Shown here: positions 1 through 6,168 of the stretch, piece by piece
Numbering within the stretch: position 1 is the first letter of the stretch
Layout: each line of letters begins with the position of its first letter
Virus record (IMG/VR): IMGVR_UViG_2541047844_000002
Coordinates: 1 to 7,281 of that record
Strand: one strand, 5' to 3'
Origin: a virus
Lineage: Duplodnaviria > Heunggongvirae > Uroviricota > Caudoviricetes
DNA: 7,281 nt
Translations under genes and position numbers: made by a program
Notes under the pieces: model-generated
What the model saw: only the letters and a program-made list of their open reading frames with translations
What the model was told of the DNA's origin: nothing
Databases searched by the model: none

Positions 1-14
1 TTGGTTTGGGAGAA
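1..14. other. Partial left recombination site (central dinucleotide plus inner half-site); outer half lies upstream of the window
   Basis: TT-GGTTTGGGAGAA is the exact reverse complement of 1857..1870. Confidence 0.65.
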
Positions 15-353
15 GCGGCTAAAAGGAATGTAGGGACAGGGGCGAATCAGATACCTGATATGGGTAGCTTCACGCTTTCTGTTTCAGGTACTGGATATCA
101 AAAATTACCATCAGGTTTTATTCTTCAGTGGGGCTCAATCGGCGCACCAGGCATTGCACAGGATGTAGTAACCCATTTCCCGATTGCATTTCCAAACAGA
201 TGTCTGCGTGTTTTGGTCTCACAAGACTACACACCAGATAGCGGGGCTGTTGGTTATATTGCCTGTGCAGGTTTTAGTCCCGACCCGGTTAAATTTATAT
301 CCAGAGCCAGTACTCCTGGCCTCGGCGCTTCATTTTTAGCGTTAGGCTGTTAA
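3..353 (+). CDS. Alternative tail-fibre C-terminal variable module (silent orientation, no own N-terminus); would fuse to H residues 1-276 after inversion
   Basis: The open frame runs from the window start in frame with the half-site codons G-L-G-E, matching the GLGE junction in H. The TTG start at 6 in the ORF track is probably an artefact. The fibre-tip-like sequence is followed 21 nt later by a tail-fibre-assembly gene. Confidence 0.7.
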
Positions 354-374
354 TTTAGCTATATGGAGTGAAAA

Positions 375-815
375 ATGAATTACATATATTCCGCGACTAC
401 AAACTCTTTCTATCCGCTGGAGATGAAAGAGGATTACACTCAAGCTGACTCATGGCCAGATGATGCTGTTGAAGTTGATGAGCAAGTGTATATTGAGTTT
501 TCCGGATTACCGCCGAAAGGAAAAATCCGTATCGCTGGAGAAAATGGTTTTCCTGCATGGTCTGAAATTCCACCACCAACACATGAGGAACAAATTGCTG
601 CAGCCGAATTGGAGAAGCAGCAATTGATTAATCAGGCCAACGATTATATGAACAGTAAACAATGGCCTGGTAAAGCGGCTATTGGTCGTCTGAAAGGTGA
701 CGAACTGGCGCAATATAATTTGTGGCTGGATTACCTGGACGCACTGGAACTGGTCGATACTTCCGGTGCGCCAGATATTGAATGGCCTACGCCTCCGGCA
801 GTTCAGGCCAGATGA
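375..815 (+). CDS. Tail fibre assembly protein (chaperone for the alternative fibre tip), P2 G / Mu U family
   Basis: 146 aa. A GGAG-like RBS (ggagtg) precedes the ATG. The C-terminal motif LDYLDALELVDTSGAPDIEWPTPP parallels LDYIDAVTATDTSTAPDVIWPELP in the convergent chaperone. Confidence 0.8.
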   Translation: MNYIYSATTNSFYPLEMKEDYTQADSWPDDAVEVDEQVYIEFSGLPPKGKIRIAGENGFPAWSEIPPPTHEEQIAAAELEKQQLINQANDYMNSKQWPGKAAIGRLKGDELAQYNLWLDYLDALELVDTSGAPDIEWPTPPAVQAR

Positions 816-1389
816 CATCCGGCGCGGTGCTGGTATCTGTTGCCGTCACCGCGTCAATGTAATCCAGCACAGCGTTAAGTCGGGTTGTTTCTGCCTGCGT
901 CAGTTTACGTCCGGCCTGCAATCTCAGTTGAATCAGACTGATGGAAGCCATTGCAGTATCAATCAGCGACTGGCGCTGTGCTTCTGCTGCATCTACTGCG
1001 GCGCTATGCTGTGTCTCGGTATCCGTCACCCATTTCTCACCATCCCATTTATCGTATGGCGTTGATGGGGCGATAGTGGTTGTATTTTCAGGGTAATCAC
1101 CCGGAGCGGTGATTTCTTTTGATTCTCCTGTTTCGGTGCTATAGACCGTTTCACCGCGATGATCTGGCACATATTCCCATGAGTTAAAATCTGCAGAACG
1201 GCAGATTGCATAACCAGCCTTATGTGTGCCAGGGGCATCTAAACAGGAATATGCAGGGATACCGACACCAATGGCAAGATATTCATTTGAAGTAGAAATA
1301 TATTCCCGAGTTTTACCATCATAGTTATAGACGGTAATATTCCCCGCCTTCGTGGCAATAAGCTCGCTATTTAATACGGCGTTATCCAT
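787..1389 (-). CDS. G: Tail fibre assembly protein (chaperone for the currently expressed fibre tip), P2 G-like
   Basis: 200 aa. Its start overlaps the H stop by 1 nt (TAATG). It carries the conserved C-terminal chaperone motif and sits where G sits after H in P2. Confidence 0.85.
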   Translation of the reverse strand: MDNAVLNSELIATKAGNITVYNYDGKTREYISTSNEYLAIGVGIPAYSCLDAPGTHKAGYAICRSADFNSWEYVPDHRGETVYSTETGESKEITAPGDYPENTTTIAPSTPYDKWDGEKWVTDTETQHSAAVDAAEAQRQSLIDTAMASISLIQLRLQAGRKLTQAETTRLNAVLDYIDAVTATDTSTAPDVIWPELPEA

Positions 1390-2696
1390 TATGCAGCCCT
1401 CACGATATAGTTAAATGCAATATTTCGTGGACGGGTTTCACTCCCGCCAGTATTACCGATACTCCCTCGTGAATGAAGTGTCGGTGATGGGATCAGACTC
1501 CCTCCTGTATTTGTGGCATCAAGTCCCCGTCCTTGTGTGTATGTCTTTTTGAAAATCGTAGCCAGTTCCCATTCATCTTTTGTGTCGTAACCATCATTGG
1601 CAACAACAATATGGCGGTGTTTTTCCAGCATCCCTGTCTGAATGCTCAATAAAACACGTCCTGCATCAATACCGCGCCCGTCATCCCAGCCACGAATAAA
1701 CTCACCACGTAAATCAGGCAATTTATTTGTCGGATAAGCCTTTGCCAGTTCCGGGTATTCTTCAGCAGAAAAAGCCGCACCGTTGCATTTCAGCCAGCCT
1801 GTTGGCGGTGTGGCTGAAGGCCATGGAACGGGCACACCAACAGGTAATGCAGAGCCTTCTCCCAAACCAAGGTATGTGAGAAGACCAGCTATATCCTTTC
1901 CACTCAAATGAGTCAGCGTCTCATCCAGTGGCTGCTTACCTGACAGCGCATTGTTAATGGTGGTGCTGAATTTCGGGTCATTGTTAATGGCTGCGGCAAT
2001 TTCTTTCAGTGTATCCAGCGTGGCAGGCGCACCGTTAATCAGAGCGGTAATAGCGGCCTGAACAAACTCAGTGGTCGCAATCCGCGTGGTGTTATTTCCT
2101 GCGGCAGGCGTCGGCGCTTTTGGTTCTCCGGTAAATGTCGGATTATGTTTCTGCGCATACTGGGTATGAGGATCCTGTGCGGCAATGTGGTTTCTCATCT
2201 GGTCATCCACATACAGCCTTAATTCCAGGACTTCATCATCCACGTATTTACGGGTCGCCAGTACCACCGACGGATCGATTTTCAGCGTAATAGCTTCGGT
2301 ATTCGTGACAACCAGAATCATGCGGATAGTCTGGGTACGACCACTGCCTTCCTGCAACTGCGGTTTGTACGTTTCCGGGCAGTTCGCCACCGCAATGAGT
2401 ACGCCTTCATCATCATAAAGCCCAATCTCACGGATCCAGAATCCGCCCTCGTTCTCAGGGATGATTTGCTCCGCAATAATCTGGCTCTGGTTGTTCGGGT
2501 CAACGCTCAGAAGATTCAGCGGCGCGATGCGTTTCTGGTTAATAAGTTTTGTCTGTGCCGGGTCTGGTGTCGGCAAGACACCATTTGCATCACCAACGGC
2601 CATTTGCGTCAGATTCAGCTTACTGCCGAGCATCGTCGCGTTAGCCAGCCGTGCCGCGCCCTGATTAGTCAGAATGGCGTAGTATTTCACTGTCAT
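1389..2696 (-). CDS. H: Tail fibre protein, P2 gpH-like (435 aa in current orientation); constant N-terminal part 1871..2696, variable C-terminal part 1389..1868
   Basis: The N-terminus has the gpH/Mu S-type conserved pattern (MAVGD..G.LP.P, GGFW.RE.GLYDD.G.LIAVAN, YKP...EGSGR.Q). The C-terminal part has a tail-collar-like motif (PTGWLKCNGAAFS..YPELA......LPDLRGEFIRGWDDGRG). Start overlaps the gpI stop (ATGA). Confidence 0.9.
   Translation of the reverse strand: MTVKYYAILTNQGAARLANATMLGSKLNLTQMAVGDANGVLPTPDPAQTKLINQKRIAPLNLLSVDPNNQSQIIAEQIIPENEGGFWIREIGLYDDEGVLIAVANCPETYKPQLQEGSGRTQTIRMILVVTNTEAITLKIDPSVVLATRKYVDDEVLELRLYVDDQMRNHIAAQDPHTQYAQKHNPTFTGEPKAPTPAAGNNTTRIATTEFVQAAITALINGAPATLDTLKEIAAAINNDPKFSTTINNALSGKQPLDETLTHLSGKDIAGLLTYLGLGEGSALPVGVPVPWPSATPPTGWLKCNGAAFSAEEYPELAKAYPTNKLPDLRGEFIRGWDDGRGIDAGRVLLSIQTGMLEKHRHIVVANDGYDTKDEWELATIFKKTYTQGRGLDATNTGGSLIPSPTLHSRGSIGNTGGSETRPRNIAFNYIVRAA
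1857..1882. other. 26-bp site-specific recombination (crossover) site inside tail-fibre gene H, hix/gix/cix-like
   Basis: TTCTCCCAAACC-AA-GGTATGTGAGAA has a 12+2+12 layout and closely resembles hixL as I recall it (TTCTTGAAAACC AA GGTTTTTGATAA). It encodes residues Y-L-G-L-G-E (275-280) of the fibre, at the junction of constant and variable parts. Confidence 0.7.
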
Positions 2697-3304
2697 GCGT
2701 TTACTCTCAGGTTATCAATTAAATGAATGGCCGAGGCCGGGAAATAATCCCCTCCGACAATAATGGCCTCCGGGGTGTAGGGATAAACCGTCAGGGCGTC
2801 GCCGTGATAGCATCCCGCACCAGCAAAAATGTTGCCGGTTGTACTTAAACTGATAGCCAGTCCCGTCAGATGGCGGCTTGCAGGTTTTGCATCAGCAACG
2901 AGACGCTCCAGCTCCTGATACATTTCCTCGGTAATACCCTGCTCAAGCACGCCAACAACGATACGGAACGTCCCCGGCTCCTCGTTGAGTTGCCACCACT
3001 CCCTCACCTCAATCAGATAGCCGAGCGGCTCCACCACGCGCCGGATTGCGCCTATAGTGCCCTTATGGCAGTGAATGAAATACGCATCGCGGATAACAGC
3101 GCGTTTTGTCGCTTCCGGCCATTTATCATCCCAGCGGTCAACCGAAAATGACCACGCCAGCCACGGCAGCAGATTTGCCGGGCAGGTGTCCGGGTTCCAC
3201 AGCTCACGAATACTGACCGGCGTTTTTTCAATTTCCGCACAGGCTTTTGCGGCGGCAACTTCAAGCGGTGATGAGCCGGTCGGCAGCAGTCGCGAATCAC
3301 TCAT
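2693..3304 (-). CDS. I: Baseplate assembly / tail protein I (P2 gpI-like)
   Basis: 203 aa. It lies between J and H as in P2 and is translationally coupled at both ends (8-bp overlap with J, 4-bp with H). Confidence 0.8.
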   Translation of the reverse strand: MSDSRLLPTGSSPLEVAAAKACAEIEKTPVSIRELWNPDTCPANLLPWLAWSFSVDRWDDKWPEATKRAVIRDAYFIHCHKGTIGAIRRVVEPLGYLIEVREWWQLNEEPGTFRIVVGVLEQGITEEMYQELERLVADAKPASRHLTGLAISLSTTGNIFAGAGCYHGDALTVYPYTPEAIIVGGDYFPASAIHLIDNLRVNA

Positions 3305-4205
3305 CCGAGCCTCCGGTCACAACGCGGTATTCGGTACAGAAAGACGCCTGCGTACTGTTGAGCACGATGTCGGCCAGCGGTGCAGCCAGTTCGACACGCT
3401 GCACGCCTTCCACATGCAAAGCGGCATAAATGGCAGACAGACGGATGTCGCGCCCCAGCCGGTGCTGTGCCGTGATGTACGCTTCCAGTTTTTTCACGGC
3501 AGCAGCGCGGATGGGTTCGCTTTCGGGACCAGGGTAAAGGTAAAGCGTGGCGTTTATCTGGTATTCAACGATGGCGGCAGACTGCACGGTCACGCGGTCG
3601 GCCACCGGCCTGACGTCCTCGCCATTAAGGGCGTTACGCACCACCGCCAGCAGGTCTTCGGATGCCACACCGTTATTTTCACGTGACAGCACAGAGATGG
3701 TGACACAGGCAGGAGACGGACTGGTGACAGAGATATCCGCGACACGCCCGTCGGCACTGCGACCATGATACTGATAGGCTCCCACCGACCCGGCGACGCT
3801 TAAACCTTCAAACGCCTGCTGAATACGCAGACGATAATCGGTGTCAGACTCCATCACTGCCGGTGTCGGCGGAATGGTCGAATCATCTGCCGGGGTGATA
3901 ATCAGGCGCGTGGTGTTGTAATTGGCACCAATCACATCAAGGTCATTACCGGCGGCACAGGCCAGCATCACCGCCCGTGCGGCCTCATTCACACGCTGAC
4001 GCCAGATAAGCTCACGATAAGCATTTTCCTCCAGCAGTTTGACGAGAGGCTCAGATTCCAGCGTCAGGGTACGGGCGACCGCCTCCTGCTGGTCTTCCGG
4101 GTAAAGGGAAATCAGTGTCGCCTTGCGTTCGGCAAGAATGGTTTCAAAGTCCAGCTCCTCGACCACATCCGGTGCGGGTAGCTGGTTCAGGTCGATAATC
4201 GGCAT
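3297..4205 (-). CDS. J: Baseplate assembly protein J (P2 gpJ-like)
   Basis: 302 aa, the size I recall for P2 gpJ. It lies between W and I. Confidence 0.85.
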   Translation of the reverse strand: MPIIDLNQLPAPDVVEELDFETILAERKATLISLYPEDQQEAVARTLTLESEPLVKLLEENAYRELIWRQRVNEAARAVMLACAAGNDLDVIGANYNTTRLIITPADDSTIPPTPAVMESDTDYRLRIQQAFEGLSVAGSVGAYQYHGRSADGRVADISVTSPSPACVTISVLSRENNGVASEDLLAVVRNALNGEDVRPVADRVTVQSAAIVEYQINATLYLYPGPESEPIRAAAVKKLEAYITAQHRLGRDIRLSAIYAALHVEGVQRVELAAPLADIVLNSTQASFCTEYRVVTGGSDE

Positions 4206-4209
4206 GGTT

Positions 4210-4557
4210 TCAACTCACAGGGATGGTTAACGAAAGTGGCTGGCCAGTGTCGTTGTGCCGGCCGGTTAACGTAACCGTCATTCGCCCGTCAAAACTGCGC
4301 GCCGTAGTGACGGATGACAGGGTGACGCGGGGTTCCCATTTCAGCACCGCCATGTAACAGGCGACCTTAATCTGCAACTCAAGCGCCGGGGTCTGCGGCT
4401 GGTCAATCATTGACGCCAGCAACGAGCCGTAATCACGACGCATCACCCGCGAGCCGACCGGTGTGCGCAGGATATCGCCGATACTCTGGCTGATATGCTC
4501 AAGGTCAGTGACAGTCAGGCCATCACTGCGATTCATTCCGAGATAACGCGCAGTCAT
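4210..4557 (-). CDS. W: Baseplate wedge protein W (GPW/gp25 family)
   Basis: 115 aa, the size of P2 gpW, in the conserved position between V and J. Its start overlaps the V stop (ATGA). Confidence 0.85.
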   Translation of the reverse strand: MTARYLGMNRSDGLTVTDLEHISQSIGDILRTPVGSRVMRRDYGSLLASMIDQPQTPALELQIKVACYMAVLKWEPRVTLSSVTTARSFDGRMTVTLTGRHNDTGQPLSLTIPVS

Positions 4558-5189
4558 AGAGGTCCCCCTGTTGTGCCGCCACTGTCGCCGGGGTGTTTAT
4601 GGGTATGAAGTACCTTCCCGTTTGATGAGAGTTCACCGCCGGTGTGTTCAATGTTGCCGCGCATCGTCCCGCCCTTCTGCACTTCCAGCGTGCCGGTAAT
4701 CAGCCTGTTGGTGCAGACCACCTCCGGTGCGTCCAGGGTGACGCGGGTTGATGCTTTCACCATGACCACCGGCACCGTGGCGGTAACAGAATCAGAAGCC
4801 GTCACGCTGGCCGTTTTAATTCCGCTTACCGTGAGTGCACTGGTTTCAGGTTCATACTCAATCACCGCCCCGTCAGGGAAACGGATATGCAGGGCATCCG
4901 CCGACGCCGACGGCGCGGGGTTATCGCCGGAATAAATCCCCGGCAGAACGAACGCCGTGTCGAGTTCACCGCCCACGGCCAGAATCAGCACCTGCTCCCC
5001 CACGGAAGGTGCCCACCATGTGCGCGAACGTCCGGCGCGATGGGTCAGCCACTGAAGCCAGTCGGTGCACATGCCGCCGGTCTGCACACGGCAGCGACCG
5101 GCGTTAAGGTCGGTTTCGACGATAATGCCGGTGCGGATCATGTTGCGCAGTGCGCGCGCGAGTTCCTGAATATTTGCGAGAGTGTTCAT
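4554..5189 (-). CDS. V: Baseplate spike / assembly protein V (P2 gpV-like)
   Basis: 211 aa, the size of P2 gpV, and the first gene of the V-W-J-I-H-G block. The Gly-rich C-terminus (HPGDSGGTTGGP) is typical of spike-apex proteins. Confidence 0.85.
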   Translation of the reverse strand: MNTLANIQELARALRNMIRTGIIVETDLNAGRCRVQTGGMCTDWLQWLTHRAGRSRTWWAPSVGEQVLILAVGGELDTAFVLPGIYSGDNPAPSASADALHIRFPDGAVIEYEPETSALTVSGIKTASVTASDSVTATVPVVMVKASTRVTLDAPEVVCTNRLITGTLEVQKGGTMRGNIEHTGGELSSNGKVLHTHKHPGDSGGTTGGPL

Positions 5190-5200
5190 AACGGGAAGGA

Positions 5201-5224
5201 TGCCGCCGGGTCATACCGGCGGCA
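5201..5224 (-). terminator. GC-rich hairpin between S and V (possible terminator of the upstream late operon or structure over the V translation start)
   Basis: Perfect 9-bp inverted repeat TGCCGCCGG-gtcata-CCGGCGGCA. It lies 32 nt after the S stop and 12 nt before the V ATG. No clean U-tract follows on the sense strand. Confidence 0.3.
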
Positions 5225-5255
5225 ATGTGACGATGAGGTGTCGGGAATGGCACAA

Positions 5256-5708
5256 CTAACGCTCAAGGTGAGCCAGGATAATCTCTTCAATCATCTGCAC
5301 ATCCTCACCGGTAAAGCCGAGCAGAGGACGCGCCGGATAATCAATTTTCTTACCGTCTTTCCGGTTTTCTTCCGACAGACCGAACTGATGCACGCTGGCG
5401 ATTTTCGGTGACTTTCCGCCGTAAAACTCCATTGATGCCTGTTCCGGGCTGGCGCGGATATGCAAAAAACGACTGGTGATAAGTTTCGCAAACATTTTTC
5501 GCTTAACGCGACCGGTCTTTTTTCTGGCGCTCTGCTGCTGGCGTGGCGCATAGGGTGTGCCATCCGGGGCTTTCTGTGCCATCACCCGGCGCTGCTGACT
5601 CTGCCGCAGACGTTTCGCCAGTTCTGCACTCAGTCGCCGACGCCCTGACGGTGACAGCGATTCAATCAGTCCGGCCAGCCGGTCTTCAAAACGCTTAAAC
5701 TCATTCAT
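5256..5708 (-). CDS. S: Tail completion / virion morphogenesis protein S (P2 gpS-like)
   Basis: 150 aa, the size of P2 gpS. It follows R with an 8-bp overlap and precedes V. Confidence 0.8.
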   Translation of the reverse strand: MNEFKRFEDRLAGLIESLSPSGRRRLSAELAKRLRQSQQRRVMAQKAPDGTPYAPRQQQSARKKTGRVKRKMFAKLITSRFLHIRASPEQASMEFYGGKSPKIASVHQFGLSEENRKDGKKIDYPARPLLGFTGEDVQMIEEIILAHLER

Positions 5709-6168
5709 CCCACTTGCTCACCAGTTCGCCATTGATATAAAGCTCCATCGGGCGGGTGACCGGCTCCGGCGGCGGGGGTTCCGGGATATTCTTCACATGC
5801 AGCGCGCCGTCCACCTCACTGACCAGCGTGCGCTCGGTCAGCATCAGGCTGATACTGATATCAAAGCTGCTGTCATTGTTGATGTCTGCATAAAACGTGA
5901 AGCCCTTTTTCTGGCCTGCGTCGGTGGTCATGATGTCGGGCTGATTTTCCCGCAGCCACGCCAGCACCGGCACGATGAGCAGGTCAAAATCACCAGTAAA
6001 GTCGGTCACAATGACATTGAGCGTGTAACGCTTTTCGAATGACAACGACGTCGCCAGTGTGGAGGCAATACTCCCGTTATCCACGAATATCCGCAGCATC
6101 TCGGGACTGGTTTTCAGCACCGTGACGGCATCAGTCAGCGCCCTGCGCAGGCTGTCGGGTTTGAGCAT
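5701..6168 (-). CDS. R: Tail completion protein R (P2 gpR-like)
   Basis: 155 aa, the size of P2 gpR. It starts with MLKPDSLRRALTDAV and contains FVDNGSI and LAWLRENQPDIMTTD motifs, which I recognise as gpR-like. It lies between the lysis genes and S. Confidence 0.85.
   Translation of the reverse strand: MLKPDSLRRALTDAVTVLKTSPEMLRIFVDNGSIASTLATSLSFEKRYTLNVIVTDFTGDFDLLIVPVLAWLRENQPDIMTTDAGQKKGFTFYADINNDSSFDISISLMLTERTLVSEVDGALHVKNIPEPPPPEPVTRPMELYINGELVSKWDE

Follow-up and report, generated by a model that had tools for sequence, protein, structure and literature searches.

Gene content and organization of the locus

The left part of the 7,281-nucleotide window (the whole stretch of DNA analysed here) consists of a tail-fibre gene, H, two tail-fibre assembly (chaperone) genes that face each other and a second, silent fibre tip, with P2-type baseplate genes upstream of H (Table 1). 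H encodes a protein of 435 aa (1389-2696, minus strand) in which the motif YLGLGE occupies residues 275-280. The silent tip reads G-L-G-E-A-A-K from position 3 and ends at a stop codon at 351-353, and neither open reading frame of the silent module is disrupted in the window. Each tip is paired with its own chaperone, and the two chaperone genes converge with an overlap of 29 nt. The expressed and alternative tips have no detectable similarity when compared with each other, and the two chaperones share only ~70 C-terminal residues at 38% identity. This is the layout of an invertible tail-fibre gene: a constant part outside the segment and, inside it, two tips that can each be joined in frame, each with a chaperone. 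A reading of the DNA without database searches (the sequence-only reading) had proposed two convergent tip-plus-chaperone modules between crossover sites, and the open reading frames and domain matches bear this out. It had also proposed that inversion would exchange the last 159 residues of the fibre for 116 others. In-silico inversion fuses H in frame to the alternative tip and yields the expected 392 aa, so both the length and the frame hold; GLGE is common to both tips, however, so the residues that truly differ number 155 and 112.

Table 1 Features of the window, with positions and strands
Feature	Position	Strand	Remarks
Invertible segment, core to core, ~1.87 kb	1..1870	.	Found opposite way round between identical flanks
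Invertase-proximal site, inner half and TT core	1..15	.	Left arm of 15-bp repeat; cut by window start
Silent alternative fibre tip, 116 codons, Gp53-like_C	3..353	+	Starts GLGE; promoterless; no own start in window
Tail-fibre assembly protein, 146 aa, Caudo_TAP	375..815	+	Paired with silent tip
Tail-fibre assembly protein, 200 aa, TfaE-like, Caudo_TAP	787..1389	-	Paired with expressed tip
Variable tip of H, currently expressed, residues 281-435, Collar domain	1389..1856	-	
Distal 26-bp crossover site, TTCTCCCAAACC AA GGTATGTGAGAA	1857..1882	.	Inside gene H; unique, near-palindromic
Constant N-terminal H, residues 1-275 and part of codon 276, Phage_tail_fib	1871..2696	-	Outside segment
P2-type baseplate genes I, J, W, V	2693..5189	-	Upstream of H, same strand

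The surroundings are those of a P2-type tail operon. The baseplate genes match the domains Tail_P2_I, Baseplate_J, GPW_gp25 and Phage_base_V, and 99%-identical loci carry P2_Phage_GpR, Phage_tail_S, Phage_base_V, GPW_gp25, Baseplate_J, LysA and LysC. The order lysis - R - S - V - W - J - I - H - chaperone is that of the Peduovirus tail cluster, organized as in phage pro483. In this P2-like (Peduovirus) prophage the segment has the tail-fibre genes on one side and the sheath gene on the other; relatives also encode sheath, tube, tape-measure, capsid and terminase proteins. The baseplate genes are presumably the context from which H and its attached tip are transcribed. TGT-N12-ACA, the P2 late-promoter dyad, gave 0 matches across the window; a late promoter upstream of V is accordingly a presumed source of transcription. 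Candidate sigma-70-type promoters for the silent module and candidate terminators showed no excess over shuffled expectation (4 versus 4.5 and 4 versus 2.9, respectively).

Inverted repeat and crossover sites

Positions 1-15 (TTGGTTTGGGAGAAG) are the perfect reverse complement of positions 1856-1870, giving an inverted repeat of 15 bp, one more than the 14 counted in the sequence-only reading, which had rightly placed an inverted partner at the window start. Even with 2 mismatches allowed, a scan of the window for the repeat 14-mer finds just the two copies, one on each strand, and none of 200 shuffles of the window (0/200) yielded two matches to it; the perfect 15-bp match and the shuffles rule out a chance origin of the repeat. 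The window begins precisely where the repeat has its outer edge.

The right arm of the repeat overlaps a 26-mer (TTCTCCCAAACCAAGGTATGTGAGAA) that occurs once in the window, at 1857-1882, confirming the hix/gix-like site proposed at codons 275-280 of H (YLGLGE). Its core dinucleotide (1869-1870) lies within codon Leu276, and the site departs from the palindromic consensus TTCTCNNAAACCNNGGTTTNNGAGAA at 1 of 22 specified positions. At the left end the window contains only the inner half and core of a site, and no invertase gene. With the left outer half taken from relatives, the locus has two 26-bp imperfect palindromes that are inverted relative to each other and share a central dinucleotide (AA when both are read in the same sense), as in the Hin/Gin/Cin/Pin family. 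Every other 26-mer in the window is more than 7 mismatches away from the consensus, and a search of the window for extra half-site copies (≤2 mismatches) returned none besides the outer half of the same site. The locus accordingly has two sites only and differs from multi-site, shufflon-like regions such as Min of p15B or the P2-like prophage of enteropathogenic strain EPEC E2348/69 that has three repeats.

Alignment with known sites, a check suggested with the original proposal, gave a 26-bp pattern common to Mu gix (TTATCCAAAACC TC GGTTTACAGGAA) and P1 cixL (CAATCCTAAACC TT GGTTTAAGAGAA), and at each site the inner half and AA core match both e14 P-segment sites without a difference. A site sequence is no proof by itself, because the 26 bp encode the conserved LGLGE motif and a close variant (TTCTCCCAAACCAAGGTTTGTGCGAG, encoding NLGLGE) is present in HK97 stf, with no invertase beside stf-tfa in the locus examined.

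A serine invertase adjoins the segment in near-identical relatives

We compared the window with 8 of the 24 contigs that encode an identical H protein (best DNA identity 99.2%). As no contig among the eight matches the window at 100%, we infer the sequence upstream of position 1 from near-identical relatives. The outer half-site CGTTTATGAAAA (site-strand reading) precedes position 1 in every intact contig examined (7/7, at 97.4-99.2% DNA identity) and completes the proximal site as TTTTCATAAACG TT GGTTTGGGAGAA; a missing outer half had been named at the outset as grounds for abandoning the idea of a switch. Directly beyond position 1, the relatives encode a serine invertase of 197 aa with Resolvase and HTH_7 domains and Ser9 in the motif GYVRVS. 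This enzyme shares 87% identity with PinE of e14 and 78-79% with Cin of P1 and Gin of Mu; among solved structures, Gin gives the best match (3uj3, E = 1e-94). Systems of the Hin/Gin/Cin/Pin family have a serine recombinase of ~190 aa beside the segment, with an N-terminal catalytic domain (active-site Ser9/10) and a C-terminal helix-turn-helix, and the 197-aa protein of loci 97-99% identical to the window, encoded outside the window itself, is of this kind. In the relatives' invertase gene, positions 19-90, which correspond to the enhancer annotated in P1 cin, agree at 56/72 positions with cin, 53/72 with gin and 61/72 with pinE; as this is coding sequence, such conservation is not specific to an enhancer.

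Because the invertase gene lies outside the window, we infer activity in the window's own copy; with the left outer half-site also outside, that copy may have a defective or absent invertase. The locus could then be a frozen relic, descended from an invertible segment but with its invertase missing, mutated or unexpressed and its second tip carried as dead cargo. The window does end at a crossover core with the invertase beyond it, and decay is seen among relatives: one identical-H contig (L008; GCA_023055925.1) has a nonsense codon (W61*) that truncates the invertase, another (L011) has an intact invertase but IS66 inside tfaE, and two complete genomes have IS903B or IS1A under the matched 2.7-kb region. 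We nevertheless regard a relic as unlikely, given that the invertase is intact in seven of the eight contigs, six of which also have both sites undisrupted (6/8), and that the silent module retains its two open reading frames. Moreover, PinQ of prophage Qin inverts the e14 segment in trans (PMC12529663); because invertases of the family can act in this way, local loss of the enzyme need not freeze the switch.

The segment occurs in both orientations

Junction queries of equal length against complete E. coli genomes recovered the flipped junction intact in 30 genomes and the window's orientation in 37. The predicted alternative form thus occurs in real genomes, where it is annotated as a fibre gene of 1179 nt (392 aa), exactly the length foreseen from the sequence-only reading, and the constant part of H is collinear in both states. 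The sister isolates GPEC1209 and GPEC1210 share one prophage and differ in it by inversion of this segment alone: the segment itself is 100% identical between them, as are the flanks over 11,560 and 12,845 bp (24 kb together). The inversion breakpoints fall inside the 15-bp repeat, and where the alignments overlap, a single base disagrees, the first of the outer half-site. Presence of the segment in both orientations is a further property shared with the Hin/Gin/Cin/Pin systems.

These breakpoints bear on the possibility that the repeat is a by-product of the LGLGE motif being encoded on both strands, with inversions arising by general homologous recombination. The HK97 stf gene, with the same motif and a near-identical 26-mer, has no invertase beside stf-tfa at the locus examined, as this explanation would have it. 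The sites at our locus, however, are identical to characterized Pin crossover sites, including the non-coding outer half beside the invertase; an invertase gene was always adjacent in the loci examined; and the breakpoints in the sister isolates lie exactly inside the repeat. A repeat of 15 bp is also far below the length that RecA-dependent recombination uses efficiently. General recombination was rejected on the breakpoints and the adjoining invertase, and a motif by-product is extremely improbable.

A probable two-site inversion switch in a P2-like tail cluster

The window very probably comprises most of a two-site inversion switch of the Pin/Gin/Cin type in the tail cluster of a P2-like (Peduovirus) prophage. 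In the proposed scheme, the small serine DNA invertase encoded just beyond position 1 would bind the two inverted 26-bp sites, cut both at the central AA/TT dinucleotide, rotate the ends and rejoin them, reversing the 1.87-kb segment. The constant part of H (residues 1-276) would not move and would still follow the baseplate genes V-W-J-I. With the segment oriented as in the window, it would be read with the 155-residue Collar-domain tip, followed by the 200-aa TfaE-like chaperone; after inversion, it would continue in frame into the unrelated 112-residue Gp53-like tip, followed by the 146-aa chaperone, to give the fibre of 392 aa. A lysogenic culture would then release virions with either of the two receptor-binding tips, and the exchange probably changes which bacteria the phage attaches to. 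By analogy with Gin, Cin, Hin and Pin, the cleavage chemistry, dependence on Fis and an enhancer, transcription from the H side only and a change of host range would all be expected. Likewise, homology suggests a reaction that would depend on the invertase, Fis and supercoiling and proceed by a 2-bp staggered cut at the core.

Comparison with known inversion systems

The principle of the Mu G, P1 C and e14 P segments, which the sequence-only reading had invoked for a P2-like tail cluster, is supported, with e14 P the nearest comparison because its TfaE-type module is ~90% identical in DNA. The two loci share the order of a constant fibre part, a tip, a chaperone, an opposite-strand chaperone and tip, and then the invertase; the 29-nt overlap between convergent chaperone genes is also the same. 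The invertase-proximal (in e14, pinE-proximal) site, as completed from relatives, is identical in both (TTCTCCCAAACCAACGTTTATGAAAA), whereas the outer half of the distal site is GGTATGTGAGAA in the window and GGTTTTCGAGAG in e14. The second module matches e14 only from window position 638 on, the Gp53-like tip being without an e14 DNA match, and the invertase of the relatives is 13 residues longer at the C-terminus than that of e14. Inversion of the e14 segment has been detected in cultures (PMC4272514). e14 is a defective lambdoid element, next to mcrA and integrated in icd, with a decayed fibre gene (stfE, annotated as a pseudogene). The switch described here is instead fused to a P2 H-type N-terminal domain and sits in a P2-type tail operon, surrounded by genes I, J, W, V, S and R and lysis genes, with sheath and tube genes in relatives. 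The window locus is a homologue of the e14 switch and not e14 itself.

The kinship with e14 raises the alternative that inversion mainly serves the bacterial host, with one orientation yielding a fibre-derived protein that blocks receptors and so shields the lysogen against infection by other phages. Both the sites and the TfaE-type module have close homologues in the P segment of e14, whose inversion is reported to make the chimeric StfE2, a protein that blocks adsorption of phage T2 (PMC12529663). We consider a role primarily in host protection very unlikely: the P2-type tail operon around the segment is complete, its lysis, baseplate and fibre genes are intact, the relatives have the structural and packaging genes listed above, and nothing points to expression of H in the lysogenic state. 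A classical role in the virion is the simplest because the segment sits in such a complete operon. It also seems quite unlikely that the flip extends beyond virion host range, with one orientation yielding, by analogy with StfE2, a fibre protein that, if expressed in the lysogen, would mask outer-membrane receptors and guard the host against unrelated phages. A similarly unlikely possibility is that the position of the window start at the repeat edge reflects a sequenced population of mixed orientation.

The Mu G segment with Gin and the P1 C segment with Cin follow the same plan, with a constant N-terminal fibre part outside, two tips with chaperones inside and a small serine invertase adjacent. 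These systems belong to other phages (Mu and P1) and have larger segments (~3 kb and ~4.2 kb, respectively), and Mu has a different core dinucleotide. The inverted repeats of P1 are long (~0.6 kb) compared with 15 bp in the window. The stf-tfa region of HK97 and HK106 resembles the expressed module closely, matching window positions 735-1881 (expressed tip and chaperone) at 88-94% DNA identity and ending at the 26-bp site. In HK97, however, there is no second module, inverted partner site or invertase at that locus; the fibre is fixed and its N-terminal part is unrelated.

Among the closest known systems are also P2-like phages and prophages that have an invertase beside the fibre genes, namely pro483, Escherichia phage S164, the 'P2' of O157:H43 T22, Fels-2 and those of EPEC E2348/69. 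Peduovirus pro483 has the same order of I, H, chaperone, inverted chaperone and tip, invertase and sheath gene. The annotated invertases of the P2-like members are 96-98% identical to the enzyme of the window's relatives, and that of Fels-2 is 84% identical; the Fels-2 invertase (Fin) is said to be functional, from work by Kutsukake et al. in 2006. The tip modules vary among the P2-like members (H of pro483 is 1200 nt in the deposited orientation), and S164 differs in having lost most of the second module. Inversion has been observed by whole-genome sequencing in cultures of two P2-like prophages of EPEC E2348/69 (PMC4272514), one of which has three repeats and four states, against two sites and two states here.

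Implications for annotation

Novelty is lower than the sequence-only reading implied, as genome records of P2-like phages already annotate the arrangement and experiments have shown inversion in P2-like prophages. Phage pro483 and the P2-like prophages of EPEC E2348/69 are earlier examples of this type of switch, and nothing in it is biologically new; tail-fibre inversion by invertases of the Pin/Gin/Cin type is textbook knowledge. The example does show that a site-specific inversion switch can be recognized, and its product predicted, by reading raw sequence alone. For annotation, products of 435 and 392 aa are both valid forms of the fibre gene in such prophages, and a free-standing 'gp53-like' CDS called by a pipeline is the silent half of the switch. 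Assemblies may also break at the invertible segment or differ by it.

A probable invertible tail-fibre segment in a P2-type late region

The locus is very probably a Pin-type invertible tail-fibre segment, and it is of the simple, two-state type because only two sites occur there. The minus strand carries every long open reading frame between 787 and 7281, which together make up a P2-type late region; domains P2_Phage_GpR, Phage_tail_S, Phage_base_V, GPW_gp25, Baseplate_J, LysA and LysC were found on the remaining genes in loci 99% identical to the window. The two convergent modules predicted between the repeats from sequence alone, each a fibre tip plus a chaperone (tail-fibre assembly protein), are borne out by open reading frames and Pfam domains, and the two assembly genes converge with a 29-nt overlap.

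Features of the P2-type tail cluster and its fibre segment
Feature	Position	Strand	Domain
Lysis genes	first in late region	minus	
R	5701-6168	minus	
S	5256-5708	minus	
V	4554-5189	minus	
W	4210-4557	minus	
J	3297-4205	minus	
I	2693-3304	minus	Tail_P2_I (Pfam)
Fibre gene H, 435 aa	1389-2696	minus	Phage_tail_fib, residues 1-150; Collar, 287-334 (Pfam)
Fibre assembly protein, 200 aa	787-1389	minus	Caudo_TAP (Pfam)
Silent tip frame	first window bases to stop 351-353	plus	Gp53-like_C fibre domain
Second assembly protein, 146 aa	375-815	plus	

The segment is bounded by a 15-bp inverted repeat, with 1856-1870 the perfect reverse complement of 1-15; the inverted partner proposed at the window start thus stands, at 15 rather than 14 bp. 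Its 14-mer has exactly two copies in the window, one on each strand, with up to two mismatches allowed, and none of 200 shuffles contained two matches. The proposed 26-bp distal site (1857-1882) lies inside H as described, at residues 275-280 (YLGLGE) with its central AA within the codon for Leu276. It occurs once in the window and departs from the palindromic consensus TTCTCNNAAACCNNGGTTTNNGAGAA at 1 of 22 specified positions; no other 26-mer within the window comes within seven mismatches of that consensus. Read from position 3, the plus strand gives 11 residues of the silent tip frame, which is open to its stop, and an in-silico join of constant H (2696 down to 1871) to window 1-353 yields an uninterrupted protein of 392 aa. 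This is the length that the sequence-only reading had predicted; its exchange of 159 for 116 residues becomes 155 for 112, because GLGE occurs in both fibre forms. No similarity was detectable when the two tips were compared, and the chaperones are alike only over their last ~70 residues (38% identity). An 18-nt inverted repeat (89%; 725-742 and 851-868) that brackets the chaperone overlap (787-815) reflects their homologous C-terminal motif, LDYLDA or LDYIDA, encoded on opposite strands.

Elsewhere in the cluster, the S-V gap (5190-5255) is 66 nt without cargo in the window and is occupied differently in relatives: by a 741-nt hypothetical gene in two loci (L001, L005), a 786-nt gene on the opposite strand in a third (L004), and a gene for a 508-aa protein with weak AAA and faint TIR_2 matches in a fourth (L012). 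The gap looks like a hotspot of variable insertions, which may include defence genes.

Left crossover site and invertase

Both the outer half of the left site and any invertase gene are missing from the window. Its best complete-genome matches are E. coli chromosomes (97-97.7% identity across 1-2700), in which a 594-nt 'recombinase family protein' gene lies 68 nt upstream of the base equivalent to position 1 and is followed by sheath, tube and tape-measure genes. Of 24 contigs that encode exactly this 435-aa H protein, eight were compared; seven are arranged in this way and have 97.4-99.2% DNA identity to the window over its full length. Absence of the outer half-site had been named beforehand as a possible refutation of the switch. 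In 7/7 contigs, addition of the bases preceding position 1 gives a full 26-bp site, read on its own strand as TTCTCCCAAACC AA CGTTTATGAAAA, and in 6/7 the adjoining gene encodes an intact 197-aa protein. This protein has Resolvase and HTH_7 domains and an active-site serine located in GYVRVS, belongs to the 'DNA invertase' family of PHROG (E = 9e-101), and has Gin (3uj3, E = 1e-94) as its closest solved relative. It is 96-98% identical to annotated DNA invertases of the P2-like phages S164, MET_P1_103_31, pro483 and O157:H43 'P2', 87% to PinE of e14, the cryptic prophage of E. coli K-12, and 78-79% to Cin of P1 and Gin of Mu. Identity to the Fels-2 invertase, for which Goldberg et al. 2014 refer to Kutsukake et al. 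2006 (PMC4272514), is 84%.

The switch has decayed in some relatives. The eighth contig (AP025747.1; 7502-9925 of its locus) has an IS66 element within the TfaE-type chaperone gene tfaE, the invertase of GCA_023055925.1 (8764-9357 of its locus) is inactivated by a nonsense codon (W61*), and two complete genomes have annotated IS903B and IS1A transposases under the 2.7-kb match. In RefSeq the silent tip appears as a free-standing 130-aa 'gp53-like domain-containing protein' (L001, 5961-6353), equal to window 1-353 plus 40 nt upstream, with its ATG start in the spacer adjoining the invertase; the switch has probably given rise here to an annotation artefact, not a real gene.

Both orientations among complete genomes

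A post-inversion junction query (reverse complement of 1-415 plus 1871-2300; 845 nt) was searched in 5,426 complete E. coli genomes, a junction being counted as flipped if matched in one piece over at least 80% of the query. The flipped junction was found in 30 genomes (identity up to 99.4%) and an unflipped junction of equal length (1456-2300) in 37. Flipped genomes have a fibre gene annotated as 1179 nt (392 aa), then the 146-aa chaperone, with the Collar tip and TfaE-type chaperone on the opposite strand, adjoining the invertase. Two chicken isolates, GPEC1209 and GPEC1210, show the flip most clearly: in both the prophage adjoins pflB, flanking sequences of 11,560 and 12,845 bp are 100% identical, and the 1.87-kb segment is inverted. 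Their alignments overlap within the repeat only, and the inverted alignment has a single mismatch, at the base that begins the outer half-site and so outside the segment; the exchange therefore lies within 1-15 and 1856-1870, the position that Pin-type crossover at the core demands. The window starts at the exact outer edge of the 15-bp repeat, which the preceding base in relatives (G) ends. This left end may be a contig end produced by the switch itself, since mixed orientations in the sequenced population would break the assembly graph there.

The switch is already known: the Peduovirus pro483 annotation has I, H, chaperone, then chaperone and tip, 'DNA invertase' and sheath, in the same order, and dozens of RefSeq genomes have near-identical loci. 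Goldberg et al. 2014 (PMC4272514) saw inversion in cultured bacteria, at e14 and in a pair of P2-like EPEC E2348/69 prophages, of which one has a two-state switch of the simple kind and the other three repeats.

Proposed mechanism and function

By homology to Gin, Cin, Hin and Pin, invertase dimers would bind both sites, an enhancer within the 5' portion of the invertase gene, bound by Fis, would assemble the synaptic complex, both sites would be cut at AA/TT with a 2-bp stagger, and a half-site pair would turn 180 degrees before the ends rejoin. The stretch equivalent to the annotated P1 cin enhancer is conserved, matching cin at 56/72 positions and pinE at 61/72, but it also codes for protein, so that the conservation is not specific to an enhancer. 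Transcription from the H side only would express the module adjoining constant H and leave the other silent, and P2 biology suggests a late promoter upstream of V as the driver of H; promoter-like sites in 1-2800 are no more numerous than expected. Inversion would be predicted to change receptor specificity, because the tip domains are unrelated and Mu and P1 provide precedents. A host-protective role would be a less ordinary reading, to which nothing within the sequence points; according to Kirigo et al. 2025 (PMC12529663), inversion of the homologous e14 segment gives rise to a protein that keeps phage T2 from adsorbing. That this copy still switches is likely, if somewhat less certain than the assignment of the locus, with the invertase seen only in relatives.

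Relation to e14 and to lambdoid fibre modules

Reference sites were taken from public sequence records, and the gix-like character proposed for the window's site was borne out: Mu gix and P1 cixL have the same pattern as the e14 sites and those of the window and its relatives.

Crossover sites compared
Site	Sequence
e14, adjoining pinE	TTCTCCCAAACC AA CGTTTATGAAAA
e14, within stfP	TTCTCCCAAACC AA GGTTTTCGAGAG
Invertase-proximal, window relatives	TTCTCCCAAACC AA CGTTTATGAAAA
Distal, window (1857-1882)	TTCTCCCAAACC AA GGTATGTGAGAA
Mu gix	TTATCCAAAACC TC GGTTTACAGGAA
P1 cixL	CAATCCTAAACC TT GGTTTAAGAGAA

The pinE-adjoining site matches the invertase-proximal site of the relatives exactly, the distal site shares the inner half and core of both e14 sites, and e14 tfaE-stfE has ~90% DNA identity to the window's TfaE-type chaperone and the flanks of its tip. 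The window's switch is thus closely homologous to the e14 P segment and set in a P2-type tail operon. The tfaP/tfaE overlap in e14 is likewise 29 nt.

The stf-tfa genes of the lambdoid phages HK97 (1501-2662 of its locus) and HK106 are 88-94% identical to 735-1881, the expressed tip and chaperone, a similarity that runs as far as the 26-bp site and no further. In HK97 stf a near-identical 26-mer, TTCTCCCAAACCAAGGTTTGTGCGAG, encodes NLGLGE, and no invertase is annotated adjoining stf-tfa in the 4.2-kb HK97 locus. Because the similarity ends there and HK97 has the 26-mer without an annotated invertase, the 26-mer is also a conserved fibre-module joint, and the crossover site a probable joint for horizontal module exchange between P2-like and lambdoid phages. 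The 26-mer alone would not prove inversion; the case for inversion is made by the partner site in inverted orientation, the invertase alongside and the flips that were observed. We note that ~1440-1655 (roughly H residues 347-418, near the C terminus of the expressed tip) has no DNA match in two relatives (L003, L004), e14 or HK97, with sequence on either side 88-95% identical; it resembles a receptor-binding patch exchanged inside a module that is otherwise shared.
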